Shown in pieces: positions 32,474 through 62,849 of a stretch of 64,000 nt of DNA (positions are counted from its first letter, which is position 1; each line of letters starts with the position of its first letter). The notes under the pieces are model-generated. The model made no database searches, had not been told where the DNA came from, and saw only the letters and a list, made by a program, of their open reading frames with translations. A program made the translations under genes and the position numbers. Source of the DNA: an uncultured bacterium (GTDB taxonomy: Bacteria; Methylomirabilota; Methylomirabilia; Methylomirabilales; 2-02-FULL-66-22). The DNA is taken from contig CAZNWB010000001.1 in the NCBI GenBank assembly GCA_964576535.1, positions 66,082 through 130,081 of the forward strand, written 5' to 3'.

Positions 32474-32597
32474 GCCAATGCAAAACGGACAACGGACAAC
32501 TGACAACCGGCCATCTGCCGAACTTGACCGGTTGTCGGTTGTCAGTTTGACACTTGAAATTACCCCCGCAAGGGACCGGTTGTCGGTTGTCAGTTCG
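32474..32597. repeat. GTTGTC-family element (one left arm, two right-arm copies)
   Basis: GCCAATGCAAAACGGACAACGGACAACTGACAACCGG, then CCGGTTGTCGGTTGTCAGTT at 32529 and again at 32576. Confidence 0.8.
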
Positions 32598-32601
32598 TCA
32601 T

Positions 32602-32630
32602 GTGAAAATGCGAGGGCTAGACGCCCTCGC
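32602..32630 (-). terminator. Intrinsic terminator of lysS with the stop codon in the loop
   Basis: Minus strand: GCGAGGGC-GTCTA-GCCCTCGC followed by ATTTTCAC. Confidence 0.6.
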
Positions 32631-34107
32631 GGGCCTCGGGCCGGAGCAATGGGAACAGGATGACGTCCCGGATGGAGGGGGCGTCGGTGAGGAGCATGAC
32701 CAGGCGATCAATCCCGATCCCCTCGCCGGCCGTGGGCGGCAGCCCGTACTCCAACGCCCGCAGGTAGTCCTCGTCCATGGAGTGGGCCTCCTCGTCCCCG
32801 GCGGCCCGCGCCTTGGCCTGGGCCTCCAGCCGAACCCGCTGCTCCCGCGGATCGTTGAGCTCGGTGTAGGCGTTGGCCACCTCCAGCCCACCGGCATACA
32901 GCTCGAAGCGCTGGGCAAAGCGGGGATCGTCCGGCCTGGCCTTGGCGAGGGGGCTGAGCTCTACGGGGAAGTCGGTCACGAAGGTCGGCTGGATGAGTTG
33001 CGCTTCCACCCGGGCCTCGAAAAGCTCCACCAGAAGCTTGGCCCATCCCCAGGCCGGTTTCACCGCGATGCCGCTGGCCTCCGCGGCCGCGCGCAGGCGG
33101 TCCCCGTCCCCAGCCTCCTGGGGGCTCAACCCTCCCAACTTGACTAGCGCCTCTTCAACACTGAGCCGCGGCCAGGGCGGGGCAAAGGAAATCGGCTTCC
33201 CCTGGTACGTGATGGTCTCCCCGCCGCAGACGGCGCGCACCACCTGGGGCAGGAGCTGCTCCGTCAAGGCCATGAGATCCCGGTAGTCGGCGTAGGCCTG
33301 GTAGAACTCCAGCATGGTGAACTCGGGATTGTGCTGGGTGGACACCCCTTCGTTCCGGAAGTTCCGGTTGATCTCGTACACGCGCTCCAGTCCCCCGACC
33401 ACGCACCGCTTGAGGTGGAGTTCCGGCGCGACCCGCAGGTAGAGATCGAGGCCCAGGGCGTTGTGATGCGTCACGAAAGGTCGGGCGGCGGCGCCACCCG
33501 GGATCGGCTGCATCATGGGCGTCTCGACCTCGAGAAAGCCCCGGGCGTCGAAGAAGCGGCGGATCTCGGCGATGATCCGCGCCCGCCGCTGGAAGAGCTC
33601 CACCACGGGCGGATTGGCGATCAGGTCCACGTAGCGCTGGCGGTAGCGGACCTCCACGTCGGAGAGGCCGTGCCATTTGTCGGGGAGCGGGCGTAACGCC
33701 TTGGCCAGCAGCTCAAGCCGCTCGACATGCACCGTCAGCTCACCCGTCTTGGTCCGGAAGACACGCCCGCAGATGCCCAAGAAGTCACCGATGTCGATCC
33801 GGCGGAACAGGTGATATGCCGTCTCGCCCACGCTGTCCTGCCGGACGTAGATCTGAATCCTCCCTGTCCGGTCCTTGATGTGGGCGAAGGAGGCCTTGCC
33901 GTGGGTGCGCAGGGACAGGACCCGCCCGGCTACCGTGACGGGCTCGGCCCCCGCCAGGGCGGCGTCATCGGCGGCGGCGTAGCGGGTGAGGAGCTCGCCA
34001 CCCTGATGGGTGACGGGGAAGGTGCTGGGGTAGGGGTCGATGCCGTCGCGACTGAGGTCCTCCAGCTTTTTCAGGCGCTCCCGGATGAACGCACTCGGCT
34101 CTTCCAC
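32617..34107 (-). CDS. lysS: Lysine--tRNA ligase (class II)
   Basis: OB-fold N-terminal domain and class II motifs (..[10 protein letters not shown].., ..[17 protein letters not shown].., ..[11 protein letters not shown]..). GTG start after GGAGGA. Confidence 0.95.
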
Positions 34108-34134
34108 TCGTCCTCCGGATGATCGGGAGGCCAG

Positions 34135-34253
34135 CTCTCAGCCATCAGCCACGGAAAAGGCGAGAGCGGGAAATTCGGAAGCTGAAACCGATTGCCCTCG
34201 TTGCCCGCCTGCAAGCTGAAAGCTGAAAGCTGACCGCTGATCGCTGAACGCTG
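34135..34253. repeat. GCTGA-family element in the lysS 5' leader
   Basis: CTCTCAGCCATCAGCC at 34135 and six tandem NNGCTGA heptamers at 34212-34253 are inverse-oriented partners. Confidence 0.75.
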
Positions 34254-34273
34254 AGATTGCGTAACGTGCCGCG

Positions 34274-34302
34274 ATTATAGGGAGGGGTGGGAGGAGTGTC
34301 AA
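34274..34302 (-). promoter_or_regulatory. Perfect consensus sigma70 promoter TTGACA-N17-TATAAT
   Basis: Minus strand: TGTCAA at 34297-34302 and ATTATA at 34274-34279, with a spacer counted as 17 nt. About 165 nt upstream of the lysS start. Confidence 0.75.
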
Positions 34303-34320
34303 GCCAACGCCCCAACCCAA

Positions 34321-34452
34321 CGTGTTCGGTGGTTCGAGAGTTCGGTGGGTGGGTCGTTCGGCGCATCCCGATGAACCACCGGGACCCACGGCACCGCGGT
34401 GGATTCCCACCGCCGTGGCGTGGGTGCCCCGAACACTCGAACGATCGAACGC
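34321..34452. repeat. GTTCGG-family element with nested 56-nt core hairpin
   Basis: GTTCGGTGGTTCGAGAGTTCGG.. left, ..CGAACACTCGAACGATCGAACG right, core at 34379-34434. Confidence 0.85.
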
Positions 34453-34473
34453 CTCTGGCTGGCATTGGCCAGG

Positions 34474-34716
34474 TCAACCCTTGACCCTGAGCTGGGACTC
34501 GTTCTGGGCGATAAATTTCCTGATGTCGTCCGCCATGCCGAGGAGCTTCAGCCACTGCTCCTTGTAGAGGGTGACGGGAAACCGCCCCAGACCATAGACC
34601 GATACCGCGCCTTTCTCGCTCACCTTGATGCTCGTTGCCCGGGTCACCTTGGCCTTGAGCGCCTGGTTCTCGGCCCGCAGCCGCTCCAGCTCCGCCCGAA
34701 GATCGTCGTCCCCCAT
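34474..34716 (-). CDS. Small hypothetical protein (80 aa; N-terminal coiled-coil)
   Basis: ATG at 34716 is preceded by GGGGGGAGGTG. The composition is coding-like (..VSEKGAVSVYGLGRFPVTLYKEQWLKLL..). No family recognised. Confidence 0.6.
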   Translation of the reverse strand: MGDDDLRAELERLRAENQALKAKVTRATSIKVSEKGAVSVYGLGRFPVTLYKEQWLKLLGMADDIRKFIAQNESQLRVKG

Positions 34717-34780
34717 GGCTCACCTCCCCCCATGCTAACCCGATTCCGAGAATATTAGCCGCCAAGGCGCCAACCTCTGA

Positions 34781-34891
34781 ACTGGCAATCAGGCAATCCG
34801 GCAACCTGGCAATCGGGAGTTCCCAGTTGCCGGGTACCCTCCGAGTGCGCCTGGTTGCCAGATTGCCCAGTTGCCTGGTTGCCCCTGATTC
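34781..34891. repeat. Octamer-word inverted arrays (ACTGGCAA TCAGGCAA TCCGGCAA CCTGGCAA // ..GGTTGCC AGATTGCC CAGTTGCC TGGTTGCC)
   Basis: Read directly between the prfB stop and the small gene. Confidence 0.75.
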
Positions 34892-34942
34892 GTGGCGACC
34901 TTGGCGCACCAACGGCGTTGCCGTTGGTACCGGCGGTTTGCG

Positions 34943-36050
34943 CTAGCTTGCCTTCTCGGGCGGCTTGAAGAGAACCGCCTCGATGAAACGGTCCAGGTCC
35001 CCGCCCAGGACCGCGGTGACGTTCCCCGTCTCCTCGCCCGTCCGATGATCTTTGACCAACTGGTACGGGGCCAGGACGTAGGACCGAATCTGGCTGCCCC
35101 AGGCGATGGGCGCCTTTACCCCCTGGAGCTTGGCCATCTCCTCGTCCTGCTGCCGCTTGTAGTGGTCGTAGAGCCGGGCCCGCAGGACCTTCATGGCCAT
35201 GGCCTTATTCTTGTGCTGCGAGCGCTCGTTCTGGCAGGTGGCCACGATCCCGGTGGGCAGGTGGGTGATGCGGACGGCGGAGTCGGTCACGTTGATGTGC
35301 TGCCCGCCGTGCCCCCCGGCCCGGAACGTATCGATCCTGAGGTCTTTGTCCTCGATCTTGATCTCGATGTCGTCGGAGATCTCGGGATACACGAAGACCG
35401 ACGCGAAGGAGGTATGCCGCCGCTTGCTGGCGTCGAAGGGGGAGATGCGCACCAGTCGGTGCACCCCGATCTCGGCGTGCAGGTGCCCGTAGGCATAGGG
35501 GCCTGTTACAGTCACGGTGGCATTCTTGATCCCCGCTTCTTCGCCCTCCAACAGGTCGATGACCTCGGTCGTGAACCCTTTCGACTCGACCCAGCGAAGG
35601 TACATTCGCAGGAGCATCTGCGCCCAGTCCTGGGACTCGGTCCCGCCGGCGCCGGGGTTGATGCTCAGGATGGCGTTCCCCTTGTCATATTCGCCCGAGA
35701 GGACCGTCTGCAACTCCAGGGCCCGGACCTGTCGCGTGAGCTCCTTGAGTCCATTGGAGACCTCTTGGAGCGTTTCGACGTCCTCCTGGTCCGCGGCCAG
35801 ATCCAGGAGCTCCCGGTGATCTCCCAGGTCTTTGACCAGGCCGGCATGCTGGTCCAGGGTCTGGCGAAGGTTCCTCGTCTCTTTCAGGACCTTCTGGGCT
35901 CTGTCCGGATCACTCCAGAACTCCGGTGCCCCCGTGGCCGCCTCGAGACTTGCCAGCCGAGCGGCCTTGCCGGGCAAGTCAAAGATACACCCGGAGCTGT
36001 TCGACCTTTCGCTGGAGCTCGTCAATCGTGCGTTGCAGATCAGGAATCAT
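34943..36050 (-). CDS. prfB: Peptide chain release factor 2, programmed +1 frameshift (36050..35982 joined to 35980..34943)
   Basis: ATG at 36050 gives MIPDLQRTIDELQRKVEQLRVYL, then the in-frame TGA in TAT CTT TGA C. The +1 frame continues DLPGKAARLASLE.. through SPF and GGQ (..AGGHGGQHINV..). Confidence 0.93.
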
Positions 36051-36099
36051 CGCTCCCTCCTCACGTTAGGGACAAAGTGACATAGCCTAAAGGCACGCT

Positions 36100-36180
36100 C
36101 CCGTCCCCGGCTCCTCCGCTCCTCGGCTCCTTGTCTCGGTCTTCCTCTGCCCCTCTGCCCCTTGTCTCTGTGTCCCTTCT
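36100..36180. repeat. Period-8 pyrimidine (plus) / purine (minus) tract
   Basis: Minus-strand reading: AGAAGGGA CACAGAGA CAAGGGGC AGAGGGGC AGAGGAAG ACCGAGAC AAGGAGCC GAGGAGCG GAGGAGCC. No inverted partner is seen. Confidence 0.55.
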
Positions 36181-37760
36181 CACTGGGCACGAGCCCGCCA
36201 GAGGGCGAGTCCGTATGCAGCCAGGAACGCCAGGCAGGCCCACGCCAGGATGTCCCCGTATCGCGTGTACAGGGTTTGACGCTGTCGTAACCGGATCGTT
36301 CCCAAGAGGCTCGCCTCGGTGAAGATCCCGGTGTGAGCCAGGATTTCCCCGGTGGGGGCAATCACGGCCGTGACACCGGTGTTGGCTGCCCGCACGAGGT
36401 ACGTCCCATTCTCCACGGCCCGCATGGCGGCCATGGCCAGGTGCTGGTAGGGCGCGCCGCTTCGGCCGAACCAGGCATCGTTGGTGATGTTGACCAGGAA
36501 GGCCGCCCCGCGGTCCACGAACTCCCGCACCTCACCCGGGAAGATGACCTCGTAACAGATCATCACGCTGAATTGCACCCCGTCCAGGGAAAAGACGGTG
36601 GCGGCCCGTCCCCGACCGAAGTCCCCGATCCCCACCACGAGCTTATCCAGGAAAAAGAAGATCGTCCGGAGCGGCACGTACTCGCCGAAGGGAACCAGGT
36701 GGCGCTTGTCGTAGCGGCCGCCGATCTCCCCGTCAGGGCGCAGGAGGAAGGCCGTATTGTACAGCAAGGCATCCTCCCCCAGGTCGGGGCTGCCGGTGAG
36801 CGTCGGGATGCCGACCTCTGCGATGAAGCGCCGCACGCGTGCGCCAAGCTCGGGCTCGCGTCGCAACAAGAACGGCAGGGCCGTCTCTGGCCAGACGATC
36901 AGCGCCGGCTTCTCCTCCGCCACCCGGCGGGCCAGCCGCTCGTAGATGTCCAGGGTAGCTGCCTGGTAGCTCCGGTCCCACTTCAGCGACTGGTCAATAT
37001 TCCCCTGGAGGAGCCCCACGCGAACGGTGGGACCGCCTGTGGGATCCCGCCAGATGGCCCGGGCATAGGCCAGCGTGCTCCCCAGGGCGAGAATCGTCAG
37101 CCCCACCGGAAGGAGCGCACCCCGCCGCCGGCTCCCCCCCACCCGCCCGCGCCAGGTTCGGGCCAGAAGGTCTGCGATCGTCCCATTCACCAGGACCACG
37201 AGAGCGGAGATCCCGTACACCCCGACCGCCGATGCCAGCAGGCGGATCGTGGGCTGCCGGTACTGGCTGTACCCGAGGAGCGCCCACGGGAATCCCGAGA
37301 ACAGATGGCTCCGCAGGAACTCCAGGGCTGTCCACAGCCCCGCAGCCACCAACGGGACACTCCCGCCTGGCAGCCGCAATCGGTGCTGCCCGGCCGACAG
37401 GAGCCAGGTGAAGGCCGCCGTATAGGCCCCCAGGACCGCGCAAAGGAGCAGCAGCGCCACCAGGCTCAGCCCAAGCGGCATCCGGCCATAGGTGGTCATC
37501 GTATTGACGACCCACCAGATGGTCCCCAGGAAGAAGCACAGGCCGGACGTGTATCCCAGCCATGCCGCCTGGCGCGGCACGACCCCCTCGAGCGCGAGGA
37601 ACAGGGGCACCAGGGCGACGAAGCTGACCAGGCCAATGTCCCAGGGTGGAAAGGCCGCCGTGCAGAGGACACCGCTCCCGGCCGCGAGACCGAAGCGCAC
37701 CGCTCGCGATATCTGCGGCGCACCCGCCCACGGTCTCGCGATCACACCCACCCGAGCCAT
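36180..37760 (-). CDS. lnt: Apolipoprotein N-acyltransferase
   Basis: N-terminal polytopic domain plus a C-terminal CN-hydrolase domain (..LIVWPETALP.., ..ICYEVIFP..). Confidence 0.9.
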   Translation of the reverse strand: MARVGVIARPWAGAPQISRAVRFGLAAGSGVLCTAAFPPWDIGLVSFVALVPLFLALEGVVPRQAAWLGYTSGLCFFLGTIWWVVNTMTTYGRMPLGLSLVALLLLCAVLGAYTAAFTWLLSAGQHRLRLPGGSVPLVAAGLWTALEFLRSHLFSGFPWALLGYSQYRQPTIRLLASAVGVYGISALVVLVNGTIADLLARTWRGRVGGSRRRGALLPVGLTILALGSTLAYARAIWRDPTGGPTVRVGLLQGNIDQSLKWDRSYQAATLDIYERLARRVAEEKPALIVWPETALPFLLRREPELGARVRRFIAEVGIPTLTGSPDLGEDALLYNTAFLLRPDGEIGGRYDKRHLVPFGEYVPLRTIFFFLDKLVVGIGDFGRGRAATVFSLDGVQFSVMICYEVIFPGEVREFVDRGAAFLVNITNDAWFGRSGAPYQHLAMAAMRAVENGTYLVRAANTGVTAVIAPTGEILAHTGIFTEASLLGTIRLRQRQTLYTRYGDILAWACLAFLAAYGLALWRARAQ

Positions 37761-38536
37761 ACCAGGACGTACAGGACCGGACCCGCAAACATCAGGCTGT
37801 CCAGGCGATCCAGCACCCCACCATGCCCGGGGATGAGGCTCCCGCTATCCTTGGCAGCGGCACCGCGCTTCACCACCGACTCGCAGAGATCCCCGATGAT
37901 CCCTGCGGCTCCAAGCATGAGTCCGACCCATGCCGCCTTGTCCCAGGAAAGCCTCGGCCAGACCTGGCTGCTGCCCGCCAGCGCCACCACGACGGTGGCC
38001 GCCAGGCCGCCCAGCGCGCCCTCGACCGTCTTCTTGGGGCTGATGCGGGGCGCGAGCGGCCGACGCCCGAACCGGCTCCCGAGATAGAACGCCCCGGTAT
38101 CTCCCGCCCATATCGCGAAGGCCAGGTAGTAAATGAACTGCCTCCCTTCGGGGAGTGCTCGCAAGAGGCTGGCGTAGCTCAGTAACCCCCCCACATAGGT
38201 CACGCCCAGGACAATCCACGCCCCCTGCAGCAGGCCGACCCGGAACCCCGCCGGAACCAGCGTGGCGCGGACCAAGGCCACGCCCCCCACCGCTGCCCCC
38301 ACCCCTGCCAGCCCACCTCCCCAGGTGACCGCCGTGTGCCACGCCAATGCGCCCAGGATCGTCACGAGGGAGAGCCCGGGATCGGTCCCCTCCGGACACA
38401 GCCGGGAAAATTCCCAGGCCGCCAGGGCAATGACCAGGCCCACCAGCAGGGTGAAGTGTAAGGCGGAGCCGAAGTGGACCAGGAGGAGAAACGGGGGGAT
38501 GAGCAACAGGGAGCTGAGGATCCGTTGACGATGCAT
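37742..38536 (-). CDS. cdsA: Phosphatidate cytidylyltransferase
   Basis: Polytopic, with the C-terminal signature ..SVVKRGAAAKDSGSLIPGHGGVLDRLDSL. Confidence 0.9.
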   Translation of the reverse strand: MHRQRILSSLLLIPPFLLLVHFGSALHFTLLVGLVIALAAWEFSRLCPEGTDPGLSLVTILGALAWHTAVTWGGGLAGVGAAVGGVALVRATLVPAGFRVGLLQGAWIVLGVTYVGGLLSYASLLRALPEGRQFIYYLAFAIWAGDTGAFYLGSRFGRRPLAPRISPKKTVEGALGGLAATVVVALAGSSQVWPRLSWDKAAWVGLMLGAAGIIGDLCESVVKRGAAAKDSGSLIPGHGGVLDRLDSLMFAGPVLYVLVWLGWV

Positions 38537-38579
38537 GACCTGGCCGTCCGCTGTCCCACACCGGGCGCGCAGAGCGGAC

Positions 38580-39134
38580 TCAGAACTCCATGATCTCTTT
38601 TTCCTTCTTCTCCACGAGCTCGTCCAGCCCCTTGATCATGCGGTTGGTCAACTCCTGGGTCTGGTCCATGCCCTTGCGCACGCCGTCCTCGGAGAGCTGC
38701 TTGGTCTTCTCCAGCTTCTTGAGCGCCTCGTTGGCGTCGCGGCGAATGTTGCGGATGACCACCCGCCCCTCCTCCGCCATCTTGCGCACGACCTTCACCA
38801 GCTCCTTCCTGCGCTCTTCGGTCAGGGAAGGGACCGCCAGCCGGATGACCTTGCCGTCGCTGGTCGGGGTGATCCCCAGGTCGGATTTCAGGATCGCCTT
38901 CTCGATGACCGGAATCAGCGAGGCATCCCAGGGCTGGATGGTGATCAGGCGCCGCTCCGGCGTCGCCAGGTTGGCCACCGCCTTCAGGGGAGTGGGCGTG
39001 CCGTGGTAGTCCACGACGATGCCATCCAATAACGCCACCGAGGCCCGGCCCGTCCGGACGCTGTTGAAGTCCTTCAGGGTCGCCTCTGTGGCCCGCTTCA
39101 TGTCCTGCTCGGCCTTCCGGAGGACGTCCTGCAT
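38580..39134 (-). CDS. frr: Ribosome recycling factor
   Basis: Full-length RRF similarity (..LDGIVVDYHGTPTPL.., ..IRNIRRDANE..). Confidence 0.96.
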   Translation of the reverse strand: MQDVLRKAEQDMKRATEATLKDFNSVRTGRASVALLDGIVVDYHGTPTPLKAVANLATPERRLITIQPWDASLIPVIEKAILKSDLGITPTSDGKVIRLAVPSLTEERRKELVKVVRKMAEEGRVVIRNIRRDANEALKKLEKTKQLSEDGVRKGMDQTQELTNRMIKGLDELVEKKEKEIMEF

Positions 39135-42000: not shown

Positions 42001-42004
42001 TCCG

Positions 42005-43231
42005 CTAGGTCCGGTATCCGGCGTTGATCCGGACATAGGCCTCGCTCAGATCGGTGGTCCAGACCCGCGCCGCCGCGGGGCCCGCGTGCAGGTGAACCAC
42101 CAGCGCGAACTCCCGCTGGCGGAGCCGGTGATTCACCGCGGCCTCTGCGCTTCCCCCCAGGCCAACGCCGCCTCTCACGACCGGCAATTCATCCACCAAC
42201 AGGTCCACGGATCCGGCGTCGAACCGCGCGCCCGATCGGCCCAGGGCGGCCATGATCCGCCCCCAGTTGATGTCCTCGCCGAAGAGCGTCGTCTTGACCA
42301 GGGGGGAGTTGGCCACCGCCTCGGCCGCCAGGCGCGCCTCTCTGGGGGTGCGCCCGCCGAAGATCCGGACCTCGACCAGCTTGGTCGCCCCCTCGCCGTC
42401 GCGGGCGATCATCTTGGCGAGACTCAGGCAGATCATCTCCAACCCGACGCGGAATGTTCGGAAGCCGGCCGTCCCCGCGCGCAGCGGGGGCCCTCCCACG
42501 GCCCCGTTGGCGAAACATAACACCATGTCGTTGGTGCTGGTGTCCCCATCCACGGTGATGCAGTTGAAGCTTCCGTCCACGGCGAGTCGGAGTGCCCGCT
42601 GCAGCGGTCCGGCCGCCACCGCCGCGTCCGTGGCCAGGACCGCCAGCATCGTCGCCATTCGCGGGGCGATCATACCCGAACCCTTGGCCATGCCTCCGAT
42701 GGTCACCCGCCGCTCCCCCACCGGGAAGGTGATGGCCGCCTCCTTGGGCGTGGTGTCCGTGGTGAGGATGGCCTGTGCCGCCTCGCTTCCCCCGCTGACA
42801 TCCAATCGGTCCACGGCTCGGGCGATCCCCTTCCGGACGGCCTCCATGTCCAGCGGCCTCCCGATGACACCGGTGGAGGCGACGAACACCTGGCCGGTCG
42901 GTCGCTGGATGGCCCGGGCCACTTCCCGAACCATCTCTTCGGCATCCCGGAGCCCCTGGCGGCCCGAGCAGGCGTTGGCATTCCCGCTGTTGAGGACGAT
43001 GGCCGCGAACCTCCCGCCTCGAAGCTGCCGGCGCGAGACCTGGACCGGCGCCGCCTGCACCCGGTTCGTCGTGAAGGTCGCCGCCACCGTTGCCGGTCTC
43101 TCCGACACGACCAGCGCCAGGTCCGGCGCACCTCCCCGCTTCAACCCACAGGCCACACCCGCCGACCGGACACCCTTGACCGCGGAGAGTCCCCCGGGGA
43201 TGCCGAACAGGTATGCGTCCTCCGCTGACAC
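42005..43231 (-). CDS. argJ: Bifunctional glutamate N-acetyltransferase/amino-acid acetyltransferase
   Basis: ..GGMAKGSGMIAPRMATMLAVLATDA.. autoprocessing-site region. Full-length ArgJ similarity. Confidence 0.94.
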   Translation of the reverse strand: MSAEDAYLFGIPGGLSAVKGVRSAGVACGLKRGGAPDLALVVSERPATVAATFTTNRVQAAPVQVSRRQLRGGRFAAIVLNSGNANACSGRQGLRDAEEMVREVARAIQRPTGQVFVASTGVIGRPLDMEAVRKGIARAVDRLDVSGGSEAAQAILTTDTTPKEAAITFPVGERRVTIGGMAKGSGMIAPRMATMLAVLATDAAVAAGPLQRALRLAVDGSFNCITVDGDTSTNDMVLCFANGAVGGPPLRAGTAGFRTFRVGLEMICLSLAKMIARDGEGATKLVEVRIFGGRTPREARLAAEAVANSPLVKTTLFGEDINWGRIMAALGRSGARFDAGSVDLLVDELPVVRGGVGLGGSAEAAVNHRLRQREFALVVHLHAGPAAARVWTTDLSEAYVRINAGYRT

Positions 43232-43248: not shown

Positions 43249-43342
43249 GGCAATGAAAAATTGCAAACTGACAACTGGCAATGCAAAACCGATGATCCCG
43301 CTTGACCGGTTGTCAGTTGTCGGTTGTCAGTTTTGCATTGGC
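43249..43342. repeat. GTTGTC-family element
   Basis: CCGGTTGTCAGTTGTCGGTTGTCAGTTTTGCATTGGC (43306-43342) is nearly the reverse complement of 32474-32510. The left arm is degenerate. Confidence 0.8.
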
Positions 43343-43359
43343 ACTGGGCCCAAAGGGCT

Positions 43360-44427
43360 TTACGGAAAGAGCCCCGGGATCCACAGGCTGGTCCGCTCGT
43401 CCAGGCCGGCCATCAAGTTGAAGCACTGCACGGCCTGACCGGAGGCCCCCTTCACCAGATTGTCTATGGCCGTCACCACGATGACCCGCCCCGTCCGGGA
43501 GTCAGAGACCACGCCGATATCGCAGAAATTCGAGTGCAGGACCGGCTTCGTCTCGGGGAGCTGCCCCTCCCCCAGGACGCGGACAAAGGGGGCGTCCCGG
43601 TAGAAGGTCCGGAAGAGGGAAAGAAGGTCGGCGGCGGACCGGCGGGTCTGGAGGGACGCCGTGATGGTTGTCAGGATCCCACGGGTGAGCGGCGCCAGGT
43701 GCGGCGTGAATGAGACGATGACCTCACGACCGGCCAGCCGGGAGAGCTCCTGCTCGATCTCTGGGGTGTGGCGATGGGTGGCGACTCCATATGCCTTGAG
43801 GTTCTCGTTCATCTCCGAGAAGTGATACGGCAACTCCGTCTTGCGGCCCGCCCCCGACACCCCCGAGATGGCATCGATCAATATCGAGTCCGGATCCACG
43901 AGCCCCTCGACGACCAGGGGAGCCAGCCCCAGCACCGCGCCGGTGGGATAGCAGCCGGGAACGGCCACCAGCCGCGCGTCAGCAATTGCCGCGCGATGGA
44001 GCTCGGGCAGGCCGTATGCGGCCTCCTTCAGCAGGTGGGGGGCCACGTGCTGCACCCCATACCACCGCGGGTAGGCGGCGGGGTCCTTGAGGCGGTAGTC
44101 GGCGGAGAGGTCCAGGACGCGCGCTCCGCGCTGGATCAGATCCGCGCCCGCCGCCATGGACGTCTTGTGGGGCAGCGCCAGGAAGACAAACTCCGCCTCC
44201 GCCGCCAGCTTCGCCGTATCCAGGGGGAGGCAGGTCAGATCCACCAGGCCCGTCAGGCTGGGGAAGACGTTCCCGATCGGCTGGTTCGCATAGGTGTCGG
44301 CGGTGAGGGCCACGACCTTCGCCAAGGGGTGCTGAAGCAGGAGGCGGAGAAGCTCCACTCCTGTGTACCCGCTGGCCCCGGCAATGGCCACGTGGCGGAT
44401 TCTTTCGTGCCCCTGTCTTTCCGTCAC
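43360..44427 (-). CDS. argC: N-acetyl-gamma-glutamyl-phosphate reductase
   Basis: GTG at 44427 follows GGGGGAG. ..VAIAGASGYTGVELLRLL.., ..VAVPGCYPT.. (active-site Cys). Confidence 0.92.
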   Translation of the reverse strand: MTERQGHERIRHVAIAGASGYTGVELLRLLLQHPLAKVVALTADTYANQPIGNVFPSLTGLVDLTCLPLDTAKLAAEAEFVFLALPHKTSMAAGADLIQRGARVLDLSADYRLKDPAAYPRWYGVQHVAPHLLKEAAYGLPELHRAAIADARLVAVPGCYPTGAVLGLAPLVVEGLVDPDSILIDAISGVSGAGRKTELPYHFSEMNENLKAYGVATHRHTPEIEQELSRLAGREVIVSFTPHLAPLTRGILTTITASLQTRRSAADLLSLFRTFYRDAPFVRVLGEGQLPETKPVLHSNFCDIGVVSDSRTGRVIVVTAIDNLVKGASGQAVQCFNLMAGLDERTSLWIPGLFP

Positions 44428-44520
44428 GCTGTCCGCTCCCCCGCTGTCCCCAGAACTGGCGCCCTCGACCGACCGCCCACGGTTGCAGGAATGCGTTTCT
44501 TCCTGCTGGCCCGCAGGCAT

Positions 44521-44551
44521 AAAAAAAGGGAAGAACCCGAAGGCCCTTCCC
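44521..44551 (-). terminator. Intrinsic terminator of rplM-rpsI
   Basis: Minus strand: GGGAAGGGCC-TTCG-GGTTCTTCCC followed by T7. Confidence 0.8.
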
Positions 44552-44572
44552 CGTCCTTCCCCGGCGAAACGG

Positions 44573-56944: not shown

Positions 56945-56969
56945 GGGAAACGCGGGAACGATCAGGCAC

Positions 56970-57012
56970 GGGGGGCGATGCCGCACGTTGCACATCGCTC
57001 CCCAATTTTTTT
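56970..57012 (+). terminator. Intrinsic terminator/attenuator between dctP and dctQ
   Basis: GGGGGGCGATG-12 nt loop-CATCGCTCCCC (one G-U pair) followed by AATTTTTTT. Confidence 0.65.
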
Positions 57013-57033
57013 CCGGGGCGTGGAGAGGAACCC

Positions 57034-57510
57034 GTGAAGAGACTGCTCGGGGAGAGCATCGAGTGGGTGAGCGCGGGCTTGGTTGTCGCCCTGACCGTGG
57101 TGGTGTTCATTCAGGTCTTCAACCGCTTCGTCCTCAAGACGCCCCTGGCCTGGTCGGAAGATTTGGCCATGCTCCTGTTCCAGTGGGTGGCCTTCCTGGG
57201 CGCGGCCCTCGGCGTCAAGCGCATGCGCCATTTCGGCATTGAGATGGTCGTGAAGGCACTGCCCGAAAAGGTTCGCCACGGCGTTGAGCTGCTCGTGCCA
57301 CTCATTATGGCCATCGTCGGCCTGACGATGCTCATCCAGGGCTGGACCCTCCTCACCCTGAACTGGAATAGGATCTATTCCACCATGAACCTTTCCTATA
57401 CCTGGGCCTTCCTGCCCATCCCGCTGAGTGGTGCCCTGATCCTCCTGTACCTTCTCCAGCACGAGGTCCGGCGCTGGGGGGGCAAGGGAGGAGCTCTGCC
57501 TCGGCCATGA
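57034..57510 (+). CDS. dctQ: TRAP transporter small permease (DctQ family)
   Basis: Four TM segments and ..FNRFVLKTPLAWSEDLAMLLFQW.. The stop overlaps the dctM start. Confidence 0.85.
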   Translation: MKRLLGESIEWVSAGLVVALTVVVFIQVFNRFVLKTPLAWSEDLAMLLFQWVAFLGAALGVKRMRHFGIEMVVKALPEKVRHGVELLVPLIMAIVGLTMLIQGWTLLTLNWNRIYSTMNLSYTWAFLPIPLSGALILLYLLQHEVRRWGGKGGALPRP

Positions 57511-58796
57511 CGGCGATCGCGATCCTCCTCGGAGGGTTCGCCCTCTTGCTCGCGATGAACGTGCCGGTGGCCTTTGCCATGGCACTTGCCTGCATCGCCA
57601 CCCTCCTCTGGCAGGGAACGATCCCGGTCTTGACCGTCACGCTGAAGCTCTACTCGGGGATCGACACGTTCCCCTTCCTGGCCATCCCCCTCTTCATCCT
57701 GGCCGGGGGCCTGATGGAGCACGGGGGGATTTCCCAGCGGCTGGTGCGGTTGGCCAGGAATCTCGTGGGGCACATCAAGGGGGGACTGGGCTTTGTGGTG
57801 GTGGTGTCCGAGATCTTTTTCTCTGGGATCTCCGGGTCCTCGATCGCCGATGCGTCCGCCATCGGGTCGCTTTTGCTGCCCTCCATGATCCGGGCGGGCT
57901 ACGCTGCCAACCGGGCCGCCGCCATCGTCGCCGCGGCCACCGGGATGGGGATGATGATCCCGCCCTGCCTGAACATGGTGGTCCTGGGGGCGGTGTCCAA
58001 TATCTCCATCGCCGGGCTGTTCATGGGCGGATTCCTCCCCGGATTTCTCATGGCCCTCACCCTGATGGTCATCATCTACATTCAGTCGTCCAGGGGGACC
58101 TTACCCGGCGCGGAAGGAAGCAGACCAGCCTTCCGGGAAGTCCTCATCTCGCTCTGGGACAGCGTCATTCCGCTCATGATGCCGGTGATCATCTTCGGCG
58201 GCATCTTCGCGGGAATCTTCACTGCGACCGAGGCCGCCGCGGTGGCCACCGTGTACGCGTTCATCGTGTCGGTCTTTTTCTACAAGGAGATCCAAGGGAA
58301 GGAGTTGGTGAAAATCTTCGTGGATACCGCGGTCATGACGGGGGTCGTATGCTTGCTGGTCGGAGCGGCGACGAGCTTCTCCTGGATCCTGGCCACCTAT
58401 CAGGTGCCGCGGATGATCGGGGACTTCATCGGATCGCTGGAGGGAGGACGAGCCGTCTTCTTGCTCATGACGATTGCGGTCTTCCTGGTATTCGGAATGA
58501 TCTTGGATGGCCTGCCTGCCATTCTCATCTTCTTTCCCATCCTGTATCCGATCGCCCTCTCCGTCGGGCTCCACCCACTGCACTTCGGGGTCTTGGTGAT
58601 CGCGGTCGTTGGCATCTCGATCGTGGCTCCGCCCATCGGTCTGTGTCTCGTAATCATCTGCAGCCTGGCCAAGATCAAGCTGACGGACACCATTCGGCCA
58701 CTCATTCCATACACCCTCATCCTGATTGTAGATCTGATCGTCATCGCCTTCTGGCCGTGGCTAGTGCTGATTCTTCCCACCGTGTTCAAGCTGTAA
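57507..58796 (+). CDS. dctM: TRAP transporter large permease (DctM family)
   Basis: 429-aa polytopic protein with ..FPFLAIPLFILAG.. and ..GISGSSIADASAIGS. Confidence 0.93.
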   Translation: MTAIAILLGGFALLLAMNVPVAFAMALACIATLLWQGTIPVLTVTLKLYSGIDTFPFLAIPLFILAGGLMEHGGISQRLVRLARNLVGHIKGGLGFVVVVSEIFFSGISGSSIADASAIGSLLLPSMIRAGYAANRAAAIVAAATGMGMMIPPCLNMVVLGAVSNISIAGLFMGGFLPGFLMALTLMVIIYIQSSRGTLPGAEGSRPAFREVLISLWDSVIPLMMPVIIFGGIFAGIFTATEAAAVATVYAFIVSVFFYKEIQGKELVKIFVDTAVMTGVVCLLVGAATSFSWILATYQVPRMIGDFIGSLEGGRAVFLLMTIAVFLVFGMILDGLPAILIFFPILYPIALSVGLHPLHFGVLVIAVVGISIVAPPIGLCLVIICSLAKIKLTDTIRPLIPYTLILIVDLIVIAFWPWLVLILPTVFKL

Positions 58797-58882
58797 GCCA
58801 TGCTGTCTCATTCGCAGGCATCCGGCGCGAGTGCAACAGAGTCGCCAGGCCGGCCGATTGACCTCAACGGAAAGGACCGGGT

Positions 58883-59872
58883 ATGCCCAAGCTGAAGATC
58901 GGCTTCATCCCTATTGAAGGCGGGCACTACTACAAGGAGGCCCTGGAGGAGGTGATCCGGGGGGAGGAGCTGGGCTTCGACTCCATCTGGATGGAGGAGC
59001 ACCATTCTGTCGTGAACCACTACTGGCCCTCCCCCCTCACGGTGCTCGCCGGGTTCGCCACGCGTACCTCGAAGGTGATCCTGGGGACCGACATCCTGGT
59101 CGCGCCCTTTTACCATCCCGTGCGACTAGCGGAGGACGCGGCGCTTCTGGACATCATGTCGGGGGGGCGCTTCGTCCTGGGGGTCGCCATCGGCTACAAG
59201 CCGGACGAGTTCGCCCTCTACGGCGCCGAGCTGGAGAGGCGCGGCGCGCGCTTCGAGGAGCAACTGGCCGTCGTCAAGGGCCTCTGGACCCAGGAGGCGT
59301 TCTCATTCCAGGGGAAGTACTACAAGGTGGAGGGCCGGCTGGAGCCCAAGCCCATCACGAGACCCCACCCGCCCGTGTGGGTCGGGGGGTGGGGCGATCT
59401 CACCCTCAAACGCGCCGCGACGCTGGCCGACAACTGGATCCCCGGGCCCACGGCGGATCTCGCGCGCCTGCTGGCGGGCAAGCAGCAGTTCCTGAAGAAC
59501 CGCGCCGCTGCGGGCCGCACCGCGCCCGTCGCCGAGTGGCCCGTTACCCGCGACGTCATCATTGCGGACACCGACAAAGAGGCCCGGGACCTGGCGGAGC
59601 GGCACATCATGCTCGCCTACCGGAAGGAGTACGCTGGAGGCTGGAAGCACCCCTTCATCGACGCCTCCATCGCCACGGACCTCGATGCCCTGAAGAAGGA
59701 CCGCTTCCTGATCGGGGGGCCCGACGAGGTCATCCGGGCCCTCAGACCGGTGGTGGAGCAGTACGGCATGACCCACCTGATCTGCCGGCTGTTCTTCCCG
59801 GGCATGCCCCACCGGCATATCCTGCGGGAGCTGGAGCTTCTGGCCAAGGAGATCATGCCGGCGTTCCGCTGA
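58883..59872 (+). CDS. LLM-class (luciferase-like) flavin/F420-dependent oxidoreductase
   Basis: ..LGFDSIWMEEHH.., ..FVLGVAIGYKPDEF.. and ..PPVWVGGWG. Confidence 0.88.
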   Translation: MPKLKIGFIPIEGGHYYKEALEEVIRGEELGFDSIWMEEHHSVVNHYWPSPLTVLAGFATRTSKVILGTDILVAPFYHPVRLAEDAALLDIMSGGRFVLGVAIGYKPDEFALYGAELERRGARFEEQLAVVKGLWTQEAFSFQGKYYKVEGRLEPKPITRPHPPVWVGGWGDLTLKRAATLADNWIPGPTADLARLLAGKQQFLKNRAAAGRTAPVAEWPVTRDVIIADTDKEARDLAERHIMLAYRKEYAGGWKHPFIDASIATDLDALKKDRFLIGGPDEVIRALRPVVEQYGMTHLICRLFFPGMPHRHILRELELLAKEIMPAFR

Positions 59873-59914
59873 GACATCCGCTTCCCGGGCGCGTCCTGAC
59901 ACCCGGGATAGTCG

Positions 59915-59943
59915 TTGACATTTCCCGTCGCCCCCGGTAGGGT
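59915..59943 (+). promoter_or_regulatory. Candidate promoter TTGACA-N17-TAGGGT upstream of ilvE
   Basis: Perfect -35 with a 3/6 -10, about 45 nt upstream of the ATG at 59986. Confidence 0.4.
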
Positions 59944-59985
59944 GCTGCCGAACGCACGTTCGGGAGGCCACCAAAGGGGGAGGTC

Positions 59986-60897
59986 ATGAATCTCGCCTAC
60001 TTCAACAAACAGTTCGTGCCGCTCTCGGAGGCCAAGATCAGCATCCGGACGAATGCCCTGCACTATGGAAGCGGGGTATTCGAGGGGATCCGGGCCTACT
60101 GGAATCCGAAGGAGCAGCAACTGTACGTCTTCAAGCTCCCGGAACACTACGAGCGCATGGTGAACAACTGCAAGGTGATGAAGCTCAAGCTGGATCACGA
60201 CATGAAAGAGCTGTGCGCCCTCACTGTGGATCTCCTCCGTCGGAACCAGCCGCGGGAGGATACCTACATCCGCCCCATCGCCTACATCAGCTCCGAGGGG
60301 CTGGGTCCAAAGCTCATCGGCTACGAGACCGGGTTCGCCGTCTATACCATCCCGCTCGGGGATTACATCGACACCTCGGTCGGGATCAAGGTAGGATTCT
60401 CCTCGTGGCGCCGGATCAGCGACAACAGCATCCCGGCCCGCTGTAAGGTGACCGGGGGATACGTGAACTCGGCGCTGGCCCGGACCGAGGCCATAGAGCA
60501 GGGCTACGACGAGGCCATCTTCCTCACCCAAGACGGCTTCATCTCCGAGGGATCGGCCGAGAACATCTTCCTTGCCCGCAACGGCAGCCTCATCACGCCT
60601 GACCTGTCCCAGGACATCCTGGAGGGGATCACCCGCGACGTGCTCCTCACGCTGTGCCGGGAGGAGCTGGGCTTGACGGTGGTCGAGCGTCAGGTGGGCC
60701 GCACGGAGCTGTACGTGGCGGACGAGGTCTTCCTCTGCGGGACCGGGGCCCAGGTCTCCCCGGTGATCGAGGTGGATCGCCGCCCCGTGGGCAGCGGGAA
60801 GATCGGCCCCATCACGGCCCGCATCCAGCAGCTCTACTTCCAGGTCGTCAAGGGCGACCATCCCAAGTACCGCCACTGGTGCACGCCGGTGTATTGA
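59986..60897 (+). CDS. ilvE: Branched-chain amino acid aminotransferase (fold type IV)
   Basis: ..LHYGSGVFEGIRAY.., ..CKVTGGYVNS.. and ..EGSAENIFL..GITRD. Confidence 0.93.
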   Translation: MNLAYFNKQFVPLSEAKISIRTNALHYGSGVFEGIRAYWNPKEQQLYVFKLPEHYERMVNNCKVMKLKLDHDMKELCALTVDLLRRNQPREDTYIRPIAYISSEGLGPKLIGYETGFAVYTIPLGDYIDTSVGIKVGFSSWRRISDNSIPARCKVTGGYVNSALARTEAIEQGYDEAIFLTQDGFISEGSAENIFLARNGSLITPDLSQDILEGITRDVLLTLCREELGLTVVERQVGRTELYVADEVFLCGTGAQVSPVIEVDRRPVGSGKIGPITARIQQLYFQVVKGDHPKYRHWCTPVY

Positions 60898-60983
60898 CCT
60901 CCCCTCATTTCCGCCTCTCCCCGGGTACCCCGCCTGCGGCGGGGTGCGGGAAAGGAAATAGGTGAGGGGGCTCTGGAAACCAT

Positions 60984-61020
60984 GCGGCCCGGAGGATGTC
61001 TCCGGGCCGCGTTCTTGTTT
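60984..61020 (+). terminator. Intrinsic terminator of ilvE
   Basis: GCGGCCCGGAG-GATGT-CTCCGGGCCGC followed by GTTCTTGTTT. Confidence 0.75.
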
Positions 61021-61053
61021 GGCAGCTCTCGCTGGGAAATTCCGGCGCGGACC

Positions 61054-61326
61054 TTACCAAATCTCGGACTGCACGTCCCCCCGGCCCTTCACCAGGATGT
61101 CCACGACCGCCAGGTTGAAATAGTCCGTCTGGAGCGTCACCGCCGGATCCACGTTCTTCTCGTAGTACCTCCGCCCCTCCTCAAGCTCCCGCTCCATCAC
61201 TTGGAACAGATTGTCGTGCTTGATGCCCTCGGTGATCTTTTCTTGGTTGTACAGGACGATGTCCCCCACGATCAGCCGCGCCAGCCGCCTGGCGCGCTCG
61301 TGCGGGTCCTTGCGTTCGACGGCCAT
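61054..61326 (-). CDS. Small hypothetical protein (90 aa)
   Basis: Coding-like (..ARRLARLIVGDIVLYNQEKI..), 24 nt downstream of purF on the same strand. No family recognised. Confidence 0.6.
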   Translation of the reverse strand: MAVERKDPHERARRLARLIVGDIVLYNQEKITEGIKHDNLFQVMERELEEGRRYYEKNVDPAVTLQTDYFNLAVVDILVKGRGDVQSEIW

Positions 61327-61350
61327 AGGTGAGCGCCCACCCTCCGTGAT

Positions 61351-62745
61351 TCAGGCTCCGAAGAGGCGCAACTGGCTCACATCCTCCACCGGGAACGCCA
61401 CCGGGTACTGCAGGCTGAAGCAGGCATGGCAGAACCCGTCATCCTTTCCGACGGCTTTGAGCAGCCCCTGCATGCTCAGATATCCCAGACTGTCGGCCCG
61501 GATGTACCGGCGGATCTCCTCCACCGAGTGGCTGGAGGCGATGAGTTCCTTCCGGGTCGGCGTGTCGATCCCGTAGAAGCAGGGGGAGACGGTGGGCGGC
61601 GCACTGATGCGCATGTGGACCTCGCGGGCGCCGGCCGAGCGGATCATGGTCACGATCTTCCGGCTGGTGGTCCCGCGGATGATGGAGTCGTCCACCACCA
61701 CGACCCGCTTCCCTTCCAGGATTTCCCGCACCGGGTTCAGCTTGATCTTCACCCCGAAGTGGCGGATAGTCTGCTTGGGTTCGATGAAGGTCCGACCCAC
61801 GTAGTGGTTGCGGATCAGGCCGTGGTCGAAGGACAGGCCCGACTCCTGCGCGTAGCCGAGGGCCGCCGGCAGCCCGGAGTCCGGCACCGGGATCACCAAG
61901 TCCGCGTCGGCCGGCGCCTCCCGGGCGAGTTGCCGGCCCAGCGCCTTGCGCGCCACGGCGACGTTCTGCCCGTACAGCAGGCTGTCGGGGCGGGAGAAGT
62001 AGACGTACTCGAAGATGCACTGGGCCGGACGCGCTGGCGGCAACGGCCGGTAGGATTTCATCCCCTGGGGGGTGATGTGGACGAACTCGCCCGGCTCCAC
62101 GTCCCGCACGAACGTCGCATCGATCAGGTCGAAGGCGCAGGTCTCGGATGCCAGGACCCAGGCATCCCCCAGCCGCCCTAGGGACAGGGGCCGGAACCCG
62201 TGCGGGTCCCGGATCCCCAGGAGCTCCGTCTCATTCATGATCACCAGGGAATAGGCCCCCGAAACCCGGCCCAGCGCCTCGGCCGTCGCCTCCACGAGGT
62301 TATCGCTCGCGGAGCGGGCGATCAGGTGGACGATGACCTCGGTGTCGGTGGTGGAACTGAAGATCGAGCCCTCTCGCTCCAGCTCGGCCTTCAACAGGTG
62401 GGCGTTGACGAGGTTGCCGTTGTGGGCCAGGGCCACGCTGCCGCGGCGGTAGTTGGCCAGGATCGGCTGGGCGTTCTTGAGCTGGGAGCTGCCGGTCGTC
62501 GAATAGCGCACGTGGCCAATGGCCAGAGAGCCCTTGAGGCGGCGGAGGCGGATCTCGCCGAAGACATCCGCCACGAGGCCCATCCCCCGCTCGAGGTGCA
62601 GCGTGTGGCCGTCCGAGGCGACGATCCCGGCGCTCTCCTGTCCCCGGTGCTGGAGGGCGTACAGCCCCAGGTAGGTCAGATTGCCCGCTTCGGGACGGCC
62701 CAGGATTCCGAAGATACCGCAGGCCTCGCGGAATTTATCCAACAT
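61351..62745 (-). CDS. purF: Amidophosphoribosyltransferase
   Basis: ATG at 62745 follows [22 protein letters not shown] (propeptide + catalytic Cys), a PRTase motif ..[13 protein letters not shown].. and C-terminal Cys ligands. Confidence 0.94.
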
Positions 62746-62763
62746 CGCATTTCCCCTCGCGCT

Positions 62764-62849
62764 CAACGCAAAACTGACAACCGACAACTGAACACCGGCC
62801 AGTTGCCCGGTTGTCGGTTGTCAGTTGTCGGTTTTCAATTGTCATTGGC
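62764..62849. repeat. GTTGTC-family hairpin
   Basis: CGCAAAACTGACAACCGACAACTGAACACCGG-loop-CCGGTTGTCGGTTGTCAGTTGTCGGTTTTC..CATTGGC, between the aminotransferase stop and the purF start. Confidence 0.8.

Follow-up and report, generated by a model that had tools for sequence, protein, structure and literature searches.

A genus-restricted family of tandem-heptamer hairpins between Methylomirabilota genes and its likely tie to PF05635-bearing elements

What are the inverted arrays of the word GACAAC (GTTGTC on the opposite strand) that stand beside lysS, argJ/argC, and purF in a 64,000-nucleotide (nt) stretch of Methylomirabilota DNA (the window)? The three copies belong to a multicopy family of hairpins that lie between cistrons and that, among the genomes sampled, are restricted to one genus. 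At a probability of roughly 0.55, we regard this genus-restricted family as the gene-less (miniature) form of an element of the intervening sequence (IVS) type whose cargo is a PF05635 gene. The assembly under study, G000 (3.72 Mb in 204 contigs, 65% G+C; "C50:23657" and the like give its contig and position), was compared with 20 other species of the same genus (21 genomes with G000; handles such as G004 or G019), of which G001 is the closest relative. The relatives are metagenome-assembled genomes (MAGs) of uneven completeness.

An abundant family of inverted heptamer arrays

The window copies span 32474-32610, 43251-43345, and 62762-62849. An earlier reading of these letters without database searches (the sequence-only reading) had grouped them as homologous, and the grouping holds. 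The segment 32474-32510 is nearly the reverse complement of 43306-43342 (35 of 37 positions identical, both differences falling on the free seventh base of a heptamer) and matches 62764-62798 at 30 of 35 positions. The first element has, as had been described, a single GACAAC arm and two GTTGTC arms (32527 and 32575), the latter identical to each other at 30 of 36 positions. With at most one mismatch allowed, the window contains 8 matches to GGTTGTCRGTTGTC, whereas shuffled sequence would yield 0.03. The sequence-only reading had named a lack of further genomic copies as grounds for refutation, and this condition clearly fails: searches of the whole assembly found 139 arms at 91 loci with a regular expression (at least two perfect tandem GACAACN words) and 172 arms at 97 loci with an arm hidden Markov model (HMM; E ≤ 0.01).

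The arms conform to the consensus [C/A]AAT[G/T]NAAAACN(GACAACN)2-4CGGYCA and keep a single 7-nt register throughout, which runs from the outside inward through CAATGNA/AAATGNA words, AAAACN, two to four GACAACN words, and CGGYCA. An extra outer CAATNNA word is found in about half of them, and at the seventh heptamer position C, T, and G occur while A is rare. The CAATG/CATTG-type termini noted earlier in the three window copies are general to the family, positions -12 to -8 of the arm profile reading [C/A]AAT[G/T]. Neighboring arms stand in the left-right (LR) orientation, i.e., GACAAC then GTTGTC, in 68 cases, compared to 9 LL, 8 RR, and a single RL; the unit is therefore a facing pair, with the CAATG-type ends outward and CGGYCA inward. 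Singlets occur at 34 loci, and multi-arm layouts (LLR, LRR, LLRR, and LRLR) are also present. The loops between the innermost words measure 10 to 94 nt (median, 24) and are unique to each locus save for their CGGYCA(TCT)...TGRCCG edges.

Predicted hairpins reach about -39 kcal/mol per ~96 nt on either strand, and no Rfam family matched anywhere in the window at its gathering score. The seventh bases of the two arms agreed in 28/108 comparisons in G000 (36% expected) and 44/134 in the relatives (34% expected), or 30% against 35% pooled. They are thus independent, so that the stem consists of 6-bp blocks separated by single mismatches. The Y of the loop-proximal CGGYCA likewise fails to pair: of the 13 elements in which both arms could be scored, 12 have C facing A or T facing G (e.g., window 32509-32514 versus 32524-32529). 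This mismatch, located three pairs away from the loop, looks fixed and calls to mind how extrahelical bases indicate the strand to be used in attC sites and IS608 hairpins. GACAAC arms were also found at runs of N (C14:25586, C34:8636, and C34:31500) and at contig ends (C82:6, C124:101, and C179:258), so that the repeats contribute to the fragmentation of the G000 assembly.

Placement was scored against genes called by a home-made caller using codon log-odds (3092 genes covering 79% of the genome, with some genes missed and some starts overextended). Eighty-three of 92 G000 loci lie between co-directional genes, 7 between convergent genes, and only 2 between divergent genes, an underuse of divergent spacers relative to the 9% that these represent among all gene pairs (p=0.017). 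Typically the distance from the upstream stop codon to the outer CAATG end is short, with a median of 15 nt (interquartile range, 6 to 26).

The string AAAACNGACAACNGACAAC was present in 17 of the 20 other species of the genus, with 0 to 105 matches per genome, and in none of 20 genomes sampled from six other genera of the order; a reversed control pattern had zero matches in every genome. Among those sampled, the family is restricted to one genus. In a scan of all species-representative genomes, the host genomes carrying the string were Methylomirabilota (NC10) MAGs from groundwater, lake, and soil. The exact string CAATGNAAAACNGACAACNGACAAC was encountered also in a Pyrinomonadales MAG, a second Acidobacteriota MAG, and one Sumerlaeota MAG (L037:1659-1682, L042:5440-5463, and L043:1442-1465), all of 41 to 47% G+C and with arrays containing the same CAATGNAAAACNGACAAC string. 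These three arrays had no partner arm and no PF05635 gene nearby, and about 0.3 chance matches to the CAATGNAAAACNGACAACNGACAAC pattern are expected by our own rough estimate.

Gene-bearing counterparts and turnover across the genus

The spacer before lepA (C132:2696-2799 in G000) holds a gene-less GACAAC hairpin in G000, G001, and G019. At the orthologous spacer of G004, GACAAC arms surround a PF05635 open reading frame (ORF) of 357 nt, and in G013 they likewise enclose a PF05635 ORF (357 to 360 nt in the two species). Gene-bearing and gene-less states of one word family hence exist at the same orthologous spacer. G001 carries another such element on contig C514, with the layout LL-[PF05635]-RR, and G011 has a weaker GACAAC-armed case. 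The cargo of the GACAAC arms is a four-helix-bundle protein of 118 residues.

The association is not confined to this word. Four of the six PF05635 genes of G000 are located between inverted arrays, with the words GGGTCGMA, CGTGTAMC, GGCAAYTN/ATTGCC, and GCGGAAT. Among 53 distinct PF05635 genes sampled in the genus, complementary arrays in the flanks were detected for 25 at E≤1.2e-4 and for 36 at E<0.01, compared to 2 and 10, respectively, of 228 random small genes used as controls, i.e., 1 to 4%. When the words (some similar ones merged into classes) were mapped as labels onto the PF05635 protein tree, they required 24 changes, the minimum possible, against a mean of 34.8 for shuffled labels, and a count as small was reached in none of 200 shuffles. 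All four proteins with GACAAC arms fall into a single clade (support, 100/97). The tree shows that gene and arms travel together; it is no demonstration that the protein reads the word.

These data also bear on the sequence-only reading's view of the GTTGTC elements as a second family, independent of the GTTCGG repeats in the same DNA. That the two are distinct is borne out, since GACAAC/GTTGTC has its own word with a period of 7 and its own CAATG-type termini while GTTCGG/CCGAAC has a period of 8, but "independent" goes too far. G000 has at least 10 word families that share one architecture. GACAAC is the top heptamer word (194 tandem pairs), other period-7 words including GCGGAAT (~97), ATTCGA (68), TCAGCC/GCTGAC (40), and CGGCTC (39). 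CCGAAC is the top octamer word (262), other period-8 words including ATTGCC (135), CGCCAAG (67), GTACGA (61), and GGCAAC (49). For the abundant words of G000, the same or very similar words flank PF05635 genes somewhere in the genus. Given the common architecture and these PF05635-bearing hairpins, the word families look like sister lineages of one class of elements.

How stable are the individual copies? The genes flanking them are ~83% identical between G000 and G001, falling to ~70% in the least-conserved codon phase (taken to be the third position), and at 24 of 27 resolvable orthologous spacers the family is present in both species. Most copies are therefore older than the split of the two. 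The arrays themselves have kept changing: over half of the pairs are unequal in their count of arms or words. In the seven pairs with the same layout, identity is 75% for the arms but only 47% for the loops, in essence the level of random sequence; the loops have drifted to saturation, yet perfect GACAAC words persist in both genomes. The G001 ortholog of C50:23640-23808 (L139) carries its right arm as three tandem units of ~42 nt; two of these are identical (GACCGGTTGTCGGTTGTCGGTTTTCCATTTGAAATTCCAGCT), which shows recent tandem duplication of whole arms. Two other G001 orthologs, those of C10:52061 and C7:22228 (L156-L182 set), have spacers enlarged by an insertion beside or inside the hairpin, of ~930 nt after the left arm in one case and ~340 nt after the element in the other, the latter encoding a small protein that by eye resembles GIY-YIG proteins (MACTIYILRNRSGKHYVGMSE...).

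Spacer fillers differ among the species of the genus. Synteny holds at the lysS-lolC junction in all 20 relatives, but the spacer (window 32421-32616; orthologs L010-L028) contains a GACAAC hairpin in G000, G001, and G019, decayed GACAAC forms in G017 and G015, a hairpin of CAATGAC/GGTCATT words in four species, and a GTTCG-type hairpin in one. The spacer lacks any such repeat in nine species, where it measures 22 to 47 nt, and in G006, where it measures 86 nt. The filler of the lepA spacer likewise varies by species.

Against this turnover, the GACAAC word is unchanged over ~100 loci and 17 species. If only pairing were under selection, the words would covary away, and if only slippage were at work, each array would have its own word; either the word is read, then, or the copies are renewed from a common source. 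The retention of one word over so many loci and species would accordingly exceed what selection for a hairpin alone requires. Decayed words (GACGAC, GACCAC, or GACACC) are frequent in G017, a genome with few copies, and some of them face a matching GTCGTC. One stem pair of the C132 hairpin reads A-U in G000, G.U in G001, and G-C in G019 on the sense strand, a single compensatory example. Whole modules have also been copied between loci: a module of the first window element consisting of its loop (CATCTGCCGAACTTGACCGG), a right arm, and a small G+C hairpin is shared with C50:23653-23791 (83% identity over 139 nt) and C11:31401-31509 (90% over 109 nt).

Weighing the readings

The kinship with IVS elements that we favor would imply the following course of events. 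The element would be transcribed within the operon mRNA and, some 15 nt past the upstream stop codon, would fold into a stem of ~30 bp made of 6-bp blocks with single mismatches. Its action would most likely be posttranscriptional, the stem acting perhaps as a site of double-strand-specific (RNase III-type) processing or as a barrier to 3'-exonucleases. Either action would uncouple the fates of neighboring cistrons, and in the full form processing would release the mRNA of the cargo. G000 encodes an RNase III homologue at C36:13557-14198, with a score of 143 bits that does not reach the curated cut-off (166 bits). Judging from the sequences and by analogy, RNase III-type processing or stabilization of operon mRNA by the stems is the most likely role.

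A number of observations weigh against this reading. The elements carry no strand-specific RNA signal: folding energy favored the sense strand in 21 elements and the antisense strand in 19 (p=0.85), and G.U-compatible mismatches had no sense bias (48 versus 57). These tests neither support nor exclude a role as RNA. The free seventh bases are noncomplementary between arms. No catalytic enzyme for spread was identified and no target-site duplication was found, nor was there a clean empty site, as "empty" orthologous spacers are short and unalignable or hold another hairpin; the case for mobility hence consists of the shared modules and the copy-number differences only. The covariation of protein and word among kin may reflect coinheritance alone, since related genes share labels by descent. 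Moreover, the window copies and every other GACAAC copy of G000 are gene-less, G000 has no GACAAC-armed PF05635 gene, and a protein of the GACAAC clade is present in just 4 of the 21 genomes (G001, G004, G013, and G011), so that present-day maintenance does not obviously need the protein. That copy number might depend on a cognate PF05635 gene was considered and rejected, as G000, G016, and G019 have 92, 36, and 25 matches, respectively, without the gene. Spread driven by a reverse transcriptase, as the analogy with diversity-generating retroelements would have it, was rejected because no match to PF00078 was found in G000.

Similar repeats have been described elsewhere. The words of the short tandemly repeated repetitive (STRR) sequences, as listed by Mazel et al. 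in 1990, are reportedly CCCCAGT, TTGGTCA, and CAACAGT; the CAATGAC/GGTCATT hairpin of the lysS-lolC spacer in four species carries what we take to be the second of these (STRR2, TTGGTCA). STRR sequences of heterocystous cyanobacteria, e.g., at hupS-hupL, resemble the GACAAC family in their 7-bp tandem words and intergenic hairpins within operons, and although their function is unknown, roles in transcript stability or translational coupling have been proposed (PMC2670836). They belong to another phylum; GACAACN falls outside the three classical words, even the nearest, CAACAGT, being different, and the GACAAC family has in addition defined CAATG-type outer words and a gene-bearing form. The GGGNATC repeats of Xanthomonas and Nostoc (Rehm et al. 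2015, PMC4692102) share the enrichment between aligned ORFs, the underrepresentation between divergent ones, the location <50 bp from a stop codon, and the variable number of units, and they are transcribed (PMC4692102). These are, however, G-rich and explained by a four-unit G-quadruplex (PMC4692102), whereas GACAAC arms are paired and inverted; with no G-tracts in GACAAC/GTTGTC, that explanation is inapplicable here. Geobacter metallireducens has paired arrays of ~4 tandem 7- to 8-nt words (GTTGCTYN and MTYCTGA) on opposite strands, intergenic, with variable array spacing and in tens of copies (PMC2700814). Their words and phylum differ, they were published as "predicted global regulator binding sites," and insertion sequence (IS) elements stand at a fixed distance from them (PMC2700814), which was not seen for GACAAC.

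The closest parallel in gene content is provided by the IVS elements of the 23S rRNA of Coxiella burnetii (helix 45) and Leptospira (PMC4990558). The PF05635 "23S rRNA intervening-sequence protein" family of four-helix bundles is homologous to Avd of the diversity-generating retroelements (PMC10053308). The "selfish" IVS of Coxiella, 428 nt long, carries an S23p (PF05635) ORF in its loop, and RNase III excises its stem; its tandem heptamers (GACAGAT) number two or three depending on the strain, with the first of them marking the RNase III site (PMC4990558). Common to both systems is the long stem formed by inverted ends with tandem heptamers. A PF05635 four-helix-bundle ORF in the loop is found with GACAAC arms in G001, G004, and G013 and, more weakly, in G011, but in none of the G000 copies. 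IVS elements have been described as selfish, horizontally acquired, and then vertically inherited (PMC4990558). The differences are that the window copies lie between protein-coding genes, as does 90% of the family between co-directional ones, rather than in 23S rRNA helix 25 or 45 (no search aimed at the rRNA genes of this genome was made); that there are ~100 gene-less GACAAC copies per genome against 0 to 1 gene-bearing copy; that the words are unlike (GACAAC versus GACAGAT); and that RNase III cleavage is documented for Coxiella but would be a prediction for GACAAC.

Could the arrays instead be binding sites for a protein at the DNA level? Each arm would then offer two to four direct heptamer sites, arranged as an inverted pair with an incidental hairpin, and the reader might be a nucleoid-associated protein, a partner of the gyrase or IHF type like those of the bacterial interspersed mosaic elements (BIMEs), or a global regulator. 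Full strand symmetry leaves room for such a role, the spacer bases of the two arms are noncomplementary, the maintenance of the word over ~100 loci and 17 species while the loops randomize calls for sequence-specific reading, and the inverted tandem octamers (GTTGCTYN) of G. metallireducens were so interpreted (PMC2700814). But the loci shun the divergent, promoter-bearing spacers and sit right after stop codons, a pattern uncommon among regulator sites; arm spacing ranges from 10 to 94 nt; the facing orientation is near-obligatory (LR 68, RL 1); sister species have other word families or nothing in the same spacer; and the published gene-bearing relative works as an RNA stem. On balance we consider this explanation unlikely. 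Partial bidirectional intrinsic terminators or attenuators inside operons, with A-rich outer 5' words and GTTTTNCATT outer 3' words around a G+C-richer stem, would account for the symmetric layout CAATGNAAAAC-stem-GTTTTNCATTG, which is like that of bidirectional terminators, and for the position after stop codons, convergent gene pairs included. The outer word, however, has just four consecutive U residues, which in the minimum-energy fold pair with the 5' A-tract and fall short of a U-tract of ~7 to 8 nt, while canonical terminators with long U-tracts exist in the organism (e.g., window 44552-44527, with 7 T). A simple terminator scan caught one fragment of one element, being uninformative for elements of this kind, and since 90% of the loci lie between close co-directional genes, termination would silence downstream housekeeping genes such as lolC, argJ, and purF. 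We therefore rate a terminator function as very unlikely. Neutral growth in place by replication slippage and quasi-palindrome correction, involving neither function nor mobility, agrees with the free change of word and arm numbers among species, the identical tandem 42-nt arm units of G001, and the species-specific spacer fillers. It fails to explain how the same word and CAATG termini come to be in ~100 unrelated spacers of 17 species and leaves the shared nonword modules unexplained, and templating of one arm on the other predicts complementary spacer bases, a pattern that was not seen. This already disfavored reading strikes us as barely tenable.

Two mobile-element models also need to be considered. 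In REPINs, REP (repetitive extragenic palindromic) doublets are mobilized in trans by a REP-associated tyrosine transposase (RAYT). Like REP/BIME and REPIN-RAYT systems (PMC3733652; PMC3116915; bioRxiv 10.1101/2021.07.10.451892), the GACAAC arms form abundant, high-copy palindromes outside genes, placed downstream of them and flanked by unidirectional or convergent ORFs; both occur as doublets and clusters (the GACAAC arms also as singlets), persist by long vertical inheritance (as described for REPINs in bioRxiv 10.1101/2021.07.10.451892), and have a gene-bearing "parent" with flanks that match the dispersed repeats. G000 even has 13 Y1-transposase-like genes, the one tested scoring 69.6 bits, short of the cut-off of 80, with the NCBIfam model "REP-associated tyrosine transposase." Yet GACAAC arms were found at the ends of none of 47 Y1 loci (13 in G000, 16 of the IS200 type in relatives, and 18 RAYT-like in G001, G016, and G019), the RAYT-like genes being bracketed by a different repeat built on GGGACGTTG / CAACGTCCC. 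Furthermore, GACAAC arms are arrays of tandem words without the GTAG or CGTC tag by which tagged REPs are recognized (PMC3733652), and the gene associated with them encodes a four-helix-bundle protein with no known catalytic activity. The REPIN reading is thus largely refuted here, and we hold it to be highly improbable. The chances seem slimmer still for ordinary miniature inverted-repeat transposable elements, deletion derivatives of a DDE-type IS whose terminal inverted repeats would be the arms. The inverted arms with outward-facing termini, the copy number of 0 to 105 among species, and the internal sequence common to a few copies are in line with this model. Direct repeats of 2 to 8 nt outside the termini were, however, no commoner than in shuffled pairs, so that target-site duplications are lacking; the ends are ill-defined and carry outer words in varying number; no L...R arm pair 150 to 8000 nt apart was found in G000; the sole cargo seen between arms is a PF05635 protein, not a transposase; and most copies predate the G000-G001 split yet retain perfect words.

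The IVS kinship could be taken one step further. Each tandem-word family, GACAAC included, might be the dispersed gene-less progeny of a hairpin element whose PF05635 protein recognizes its own word and thereby promotes copying, maintenance, or processing of every hairpin with that word, an extension that we offer tentatively and consider doubtful. If it were true, a partnership like that of REPIN and RAYT would be run by a nontransposase, an Avd-like nucleic acid-binding protein; the large uncharacterized PF05635 family would have a first function; and STRR-type repeats across phyla would have an explanation. Catalogs of tandem-heptamer hairpins (STRR sequences as well as the repeats of Xanthomonas, Nostoc, and Geobacter) go back to 1990, to our knowledge with no accepted origin or function, and the very large PF05635 family is known to us only under the label "IVS protein" or as Avd, an accessory protein of diversity-generating retroelements. 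New here are a full account of one gene-less family with its genus-wide retention and turnover, the finding of both gene states of one word family at one spacer, and the covariation of protein clade and word inside one genus. The genus amounts to a natural experiment, with ~100 gene-less copies per genome for one word family; spacers that in sister species are gene-bearing, gene-less, filled with another word, or short; and at least 10 PF05635 protein clades, each with its own word. It makes both the effect of the hairpin on operon mRNA and the reading of a word by a four-helix-bundle protein testable. For annotation, it is relevant that the elements fill a noticeable share of Methylomirabilota intergenic spacers and break assemblies.

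The window copies and other repeats of G000

All three window copies lie between co-directional minus-strand genes (lysS->lolC/E, argC->argJ, and aminotransferase->purF), and a downstream ribosome-binding site is found 5 to 40 nt beyond each. The adjacency to lysS, argJ/argC, and purF had been read correctly, as confirmed by NCBIfam matches of the flanking ORFs, but it has no special meaning because the family occupies ~100 spacers of all kinds.

Element 1 comprises a GACAAC arm at 32474-32515 (GCCAATGCAAAAC, three words, and CGGCCATC; HMM 32473-32515, E=3.4e-12), a proximal GTTGTC arm at 32525-32560 (two words, outer end GTTTGACACTTGAAATT; HMM 32525-32547), a small G+C hairpin at 32561-32573 (ACCCCCGCAAGGG), and a distal GTTGTC arm at 32574-32610 (two words, outer end GTTCGTCATGTGAAAATG). 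The small hairpin, between the two right arms, is a module that recurs at C11:31401 and C50:23657, and the distal arm is the one kept in the closest species. Upstream is lysS (lysine--tRNA ligase; 32617-34107, minus strand; TIGR00499, 643 bits), whose stop codon is only a few bases ahead of the element; downstream is a lolC/E permease gene (31140-32420, minus strand; TIGR02212, 382 bits). The sequence-only reading had seen alternative, mutually exclusive hairpins in the single left and double right arms. These are energetically feasible: 32474-32610 folds at -45.5 kcal/mol when the GACAAC arm pairs with the proximal arm (distal arm blocked) and at -40.4 kcal/mol when the other right arm is blocked, the nested minimum-energy fold being -50.5 kcal/mol. 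A conserved switch was not seen, as the G001 ortholog has one right arm only and multi-arm layouts (LLR, LRR, LLRRR) differ freely among species. The extra arm thus points to arm duplication and loss, not to a designed switch.

In element 2 the copy noted at 43306 stands, with the correction that a left arm does exist. It is degenerate (43251-43290; CAATGAAAAATTGCAAACTGACAACTGGCAATGCAAAACCG; weak HMM match at 43251-43277) but holds the 7-nt register, as CAATGAA AAATTGC AAACTGA CAACTGG CAATGCA AAACCGA. The GTTGTC arm, at 43303-43345, has three words and GTTTTGCATTGGC (HMM E=1.7e-12), and the element folds at -44 to -49 kcal/mol. It is preceded by argC (43360-44520, minus strand; TIGR01850, 441 bits), the listed ORF of which is probably extended at its 5' end since the family match begins at residue 43, and followed by argJ (42005-43231, minus strand; NF003802, 486 bits), with a GAGGAG ribosome-binding site ~5 nt past the element. 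Near the 5' end of the listed argC ORF, at 44527-44552 on the minus strand, is a canonical intrinsic terminator with an 11-bp stem followed by TTTTTTT, which indicates that the organism employs ordinary terminators beside the word hairpins.

Element 3 has a GACAAC arm at 62762-62798 (two perfect words and GAACAC; HMM 62762-62791) and a GTTGTC arm at 62803-62849 (three words and GGTTTTCAATTGTCATTGGC; HMM E=1.8e-10). A pyridoxal phosphate (PLP)-dependent aminotransferase gene (62855-63913, minus strand) lies upstream, and purF (61351-62745, minus strand; TIGR01134, 558 bits) lies downstream.

The RAYT-like genes of G000 have repeats of their own. The 13 Y1-transposase genes encode proteins of ~330 residues with a C-terminal extension (e.g., C122:4941-6023, C53:1600-2692, C79:2066-3562, and C40:5127-6183; L001-L008) and are bracketed by inverted repeats of tandem 11- to 12-nt words ending in GGGACGTTG, such as TAGGGGACGTT in two copies or GTAATGCGGGAC in two to three, with a CGTC-type end. 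The 18 RAYT-like genes of G001, G016, and G019 have the same GGGACGTTG-type brackets, and the 16 canonical IS200-type genes of the relatives have their own subterminal hairpins. According to Di Nocera et al., CGTC REPs have no dedicated transposase; to judge from these brackets, the RAYT-like enzyme of G000 may be one. At C43:2304-2382 and C51:9321-9421, two GGGGACGTTGCATTATAAGT-type ends face each other ~80 to 100 nt apart, in gene-less, REPIN-like miniature versions of these RAYT-like elements.

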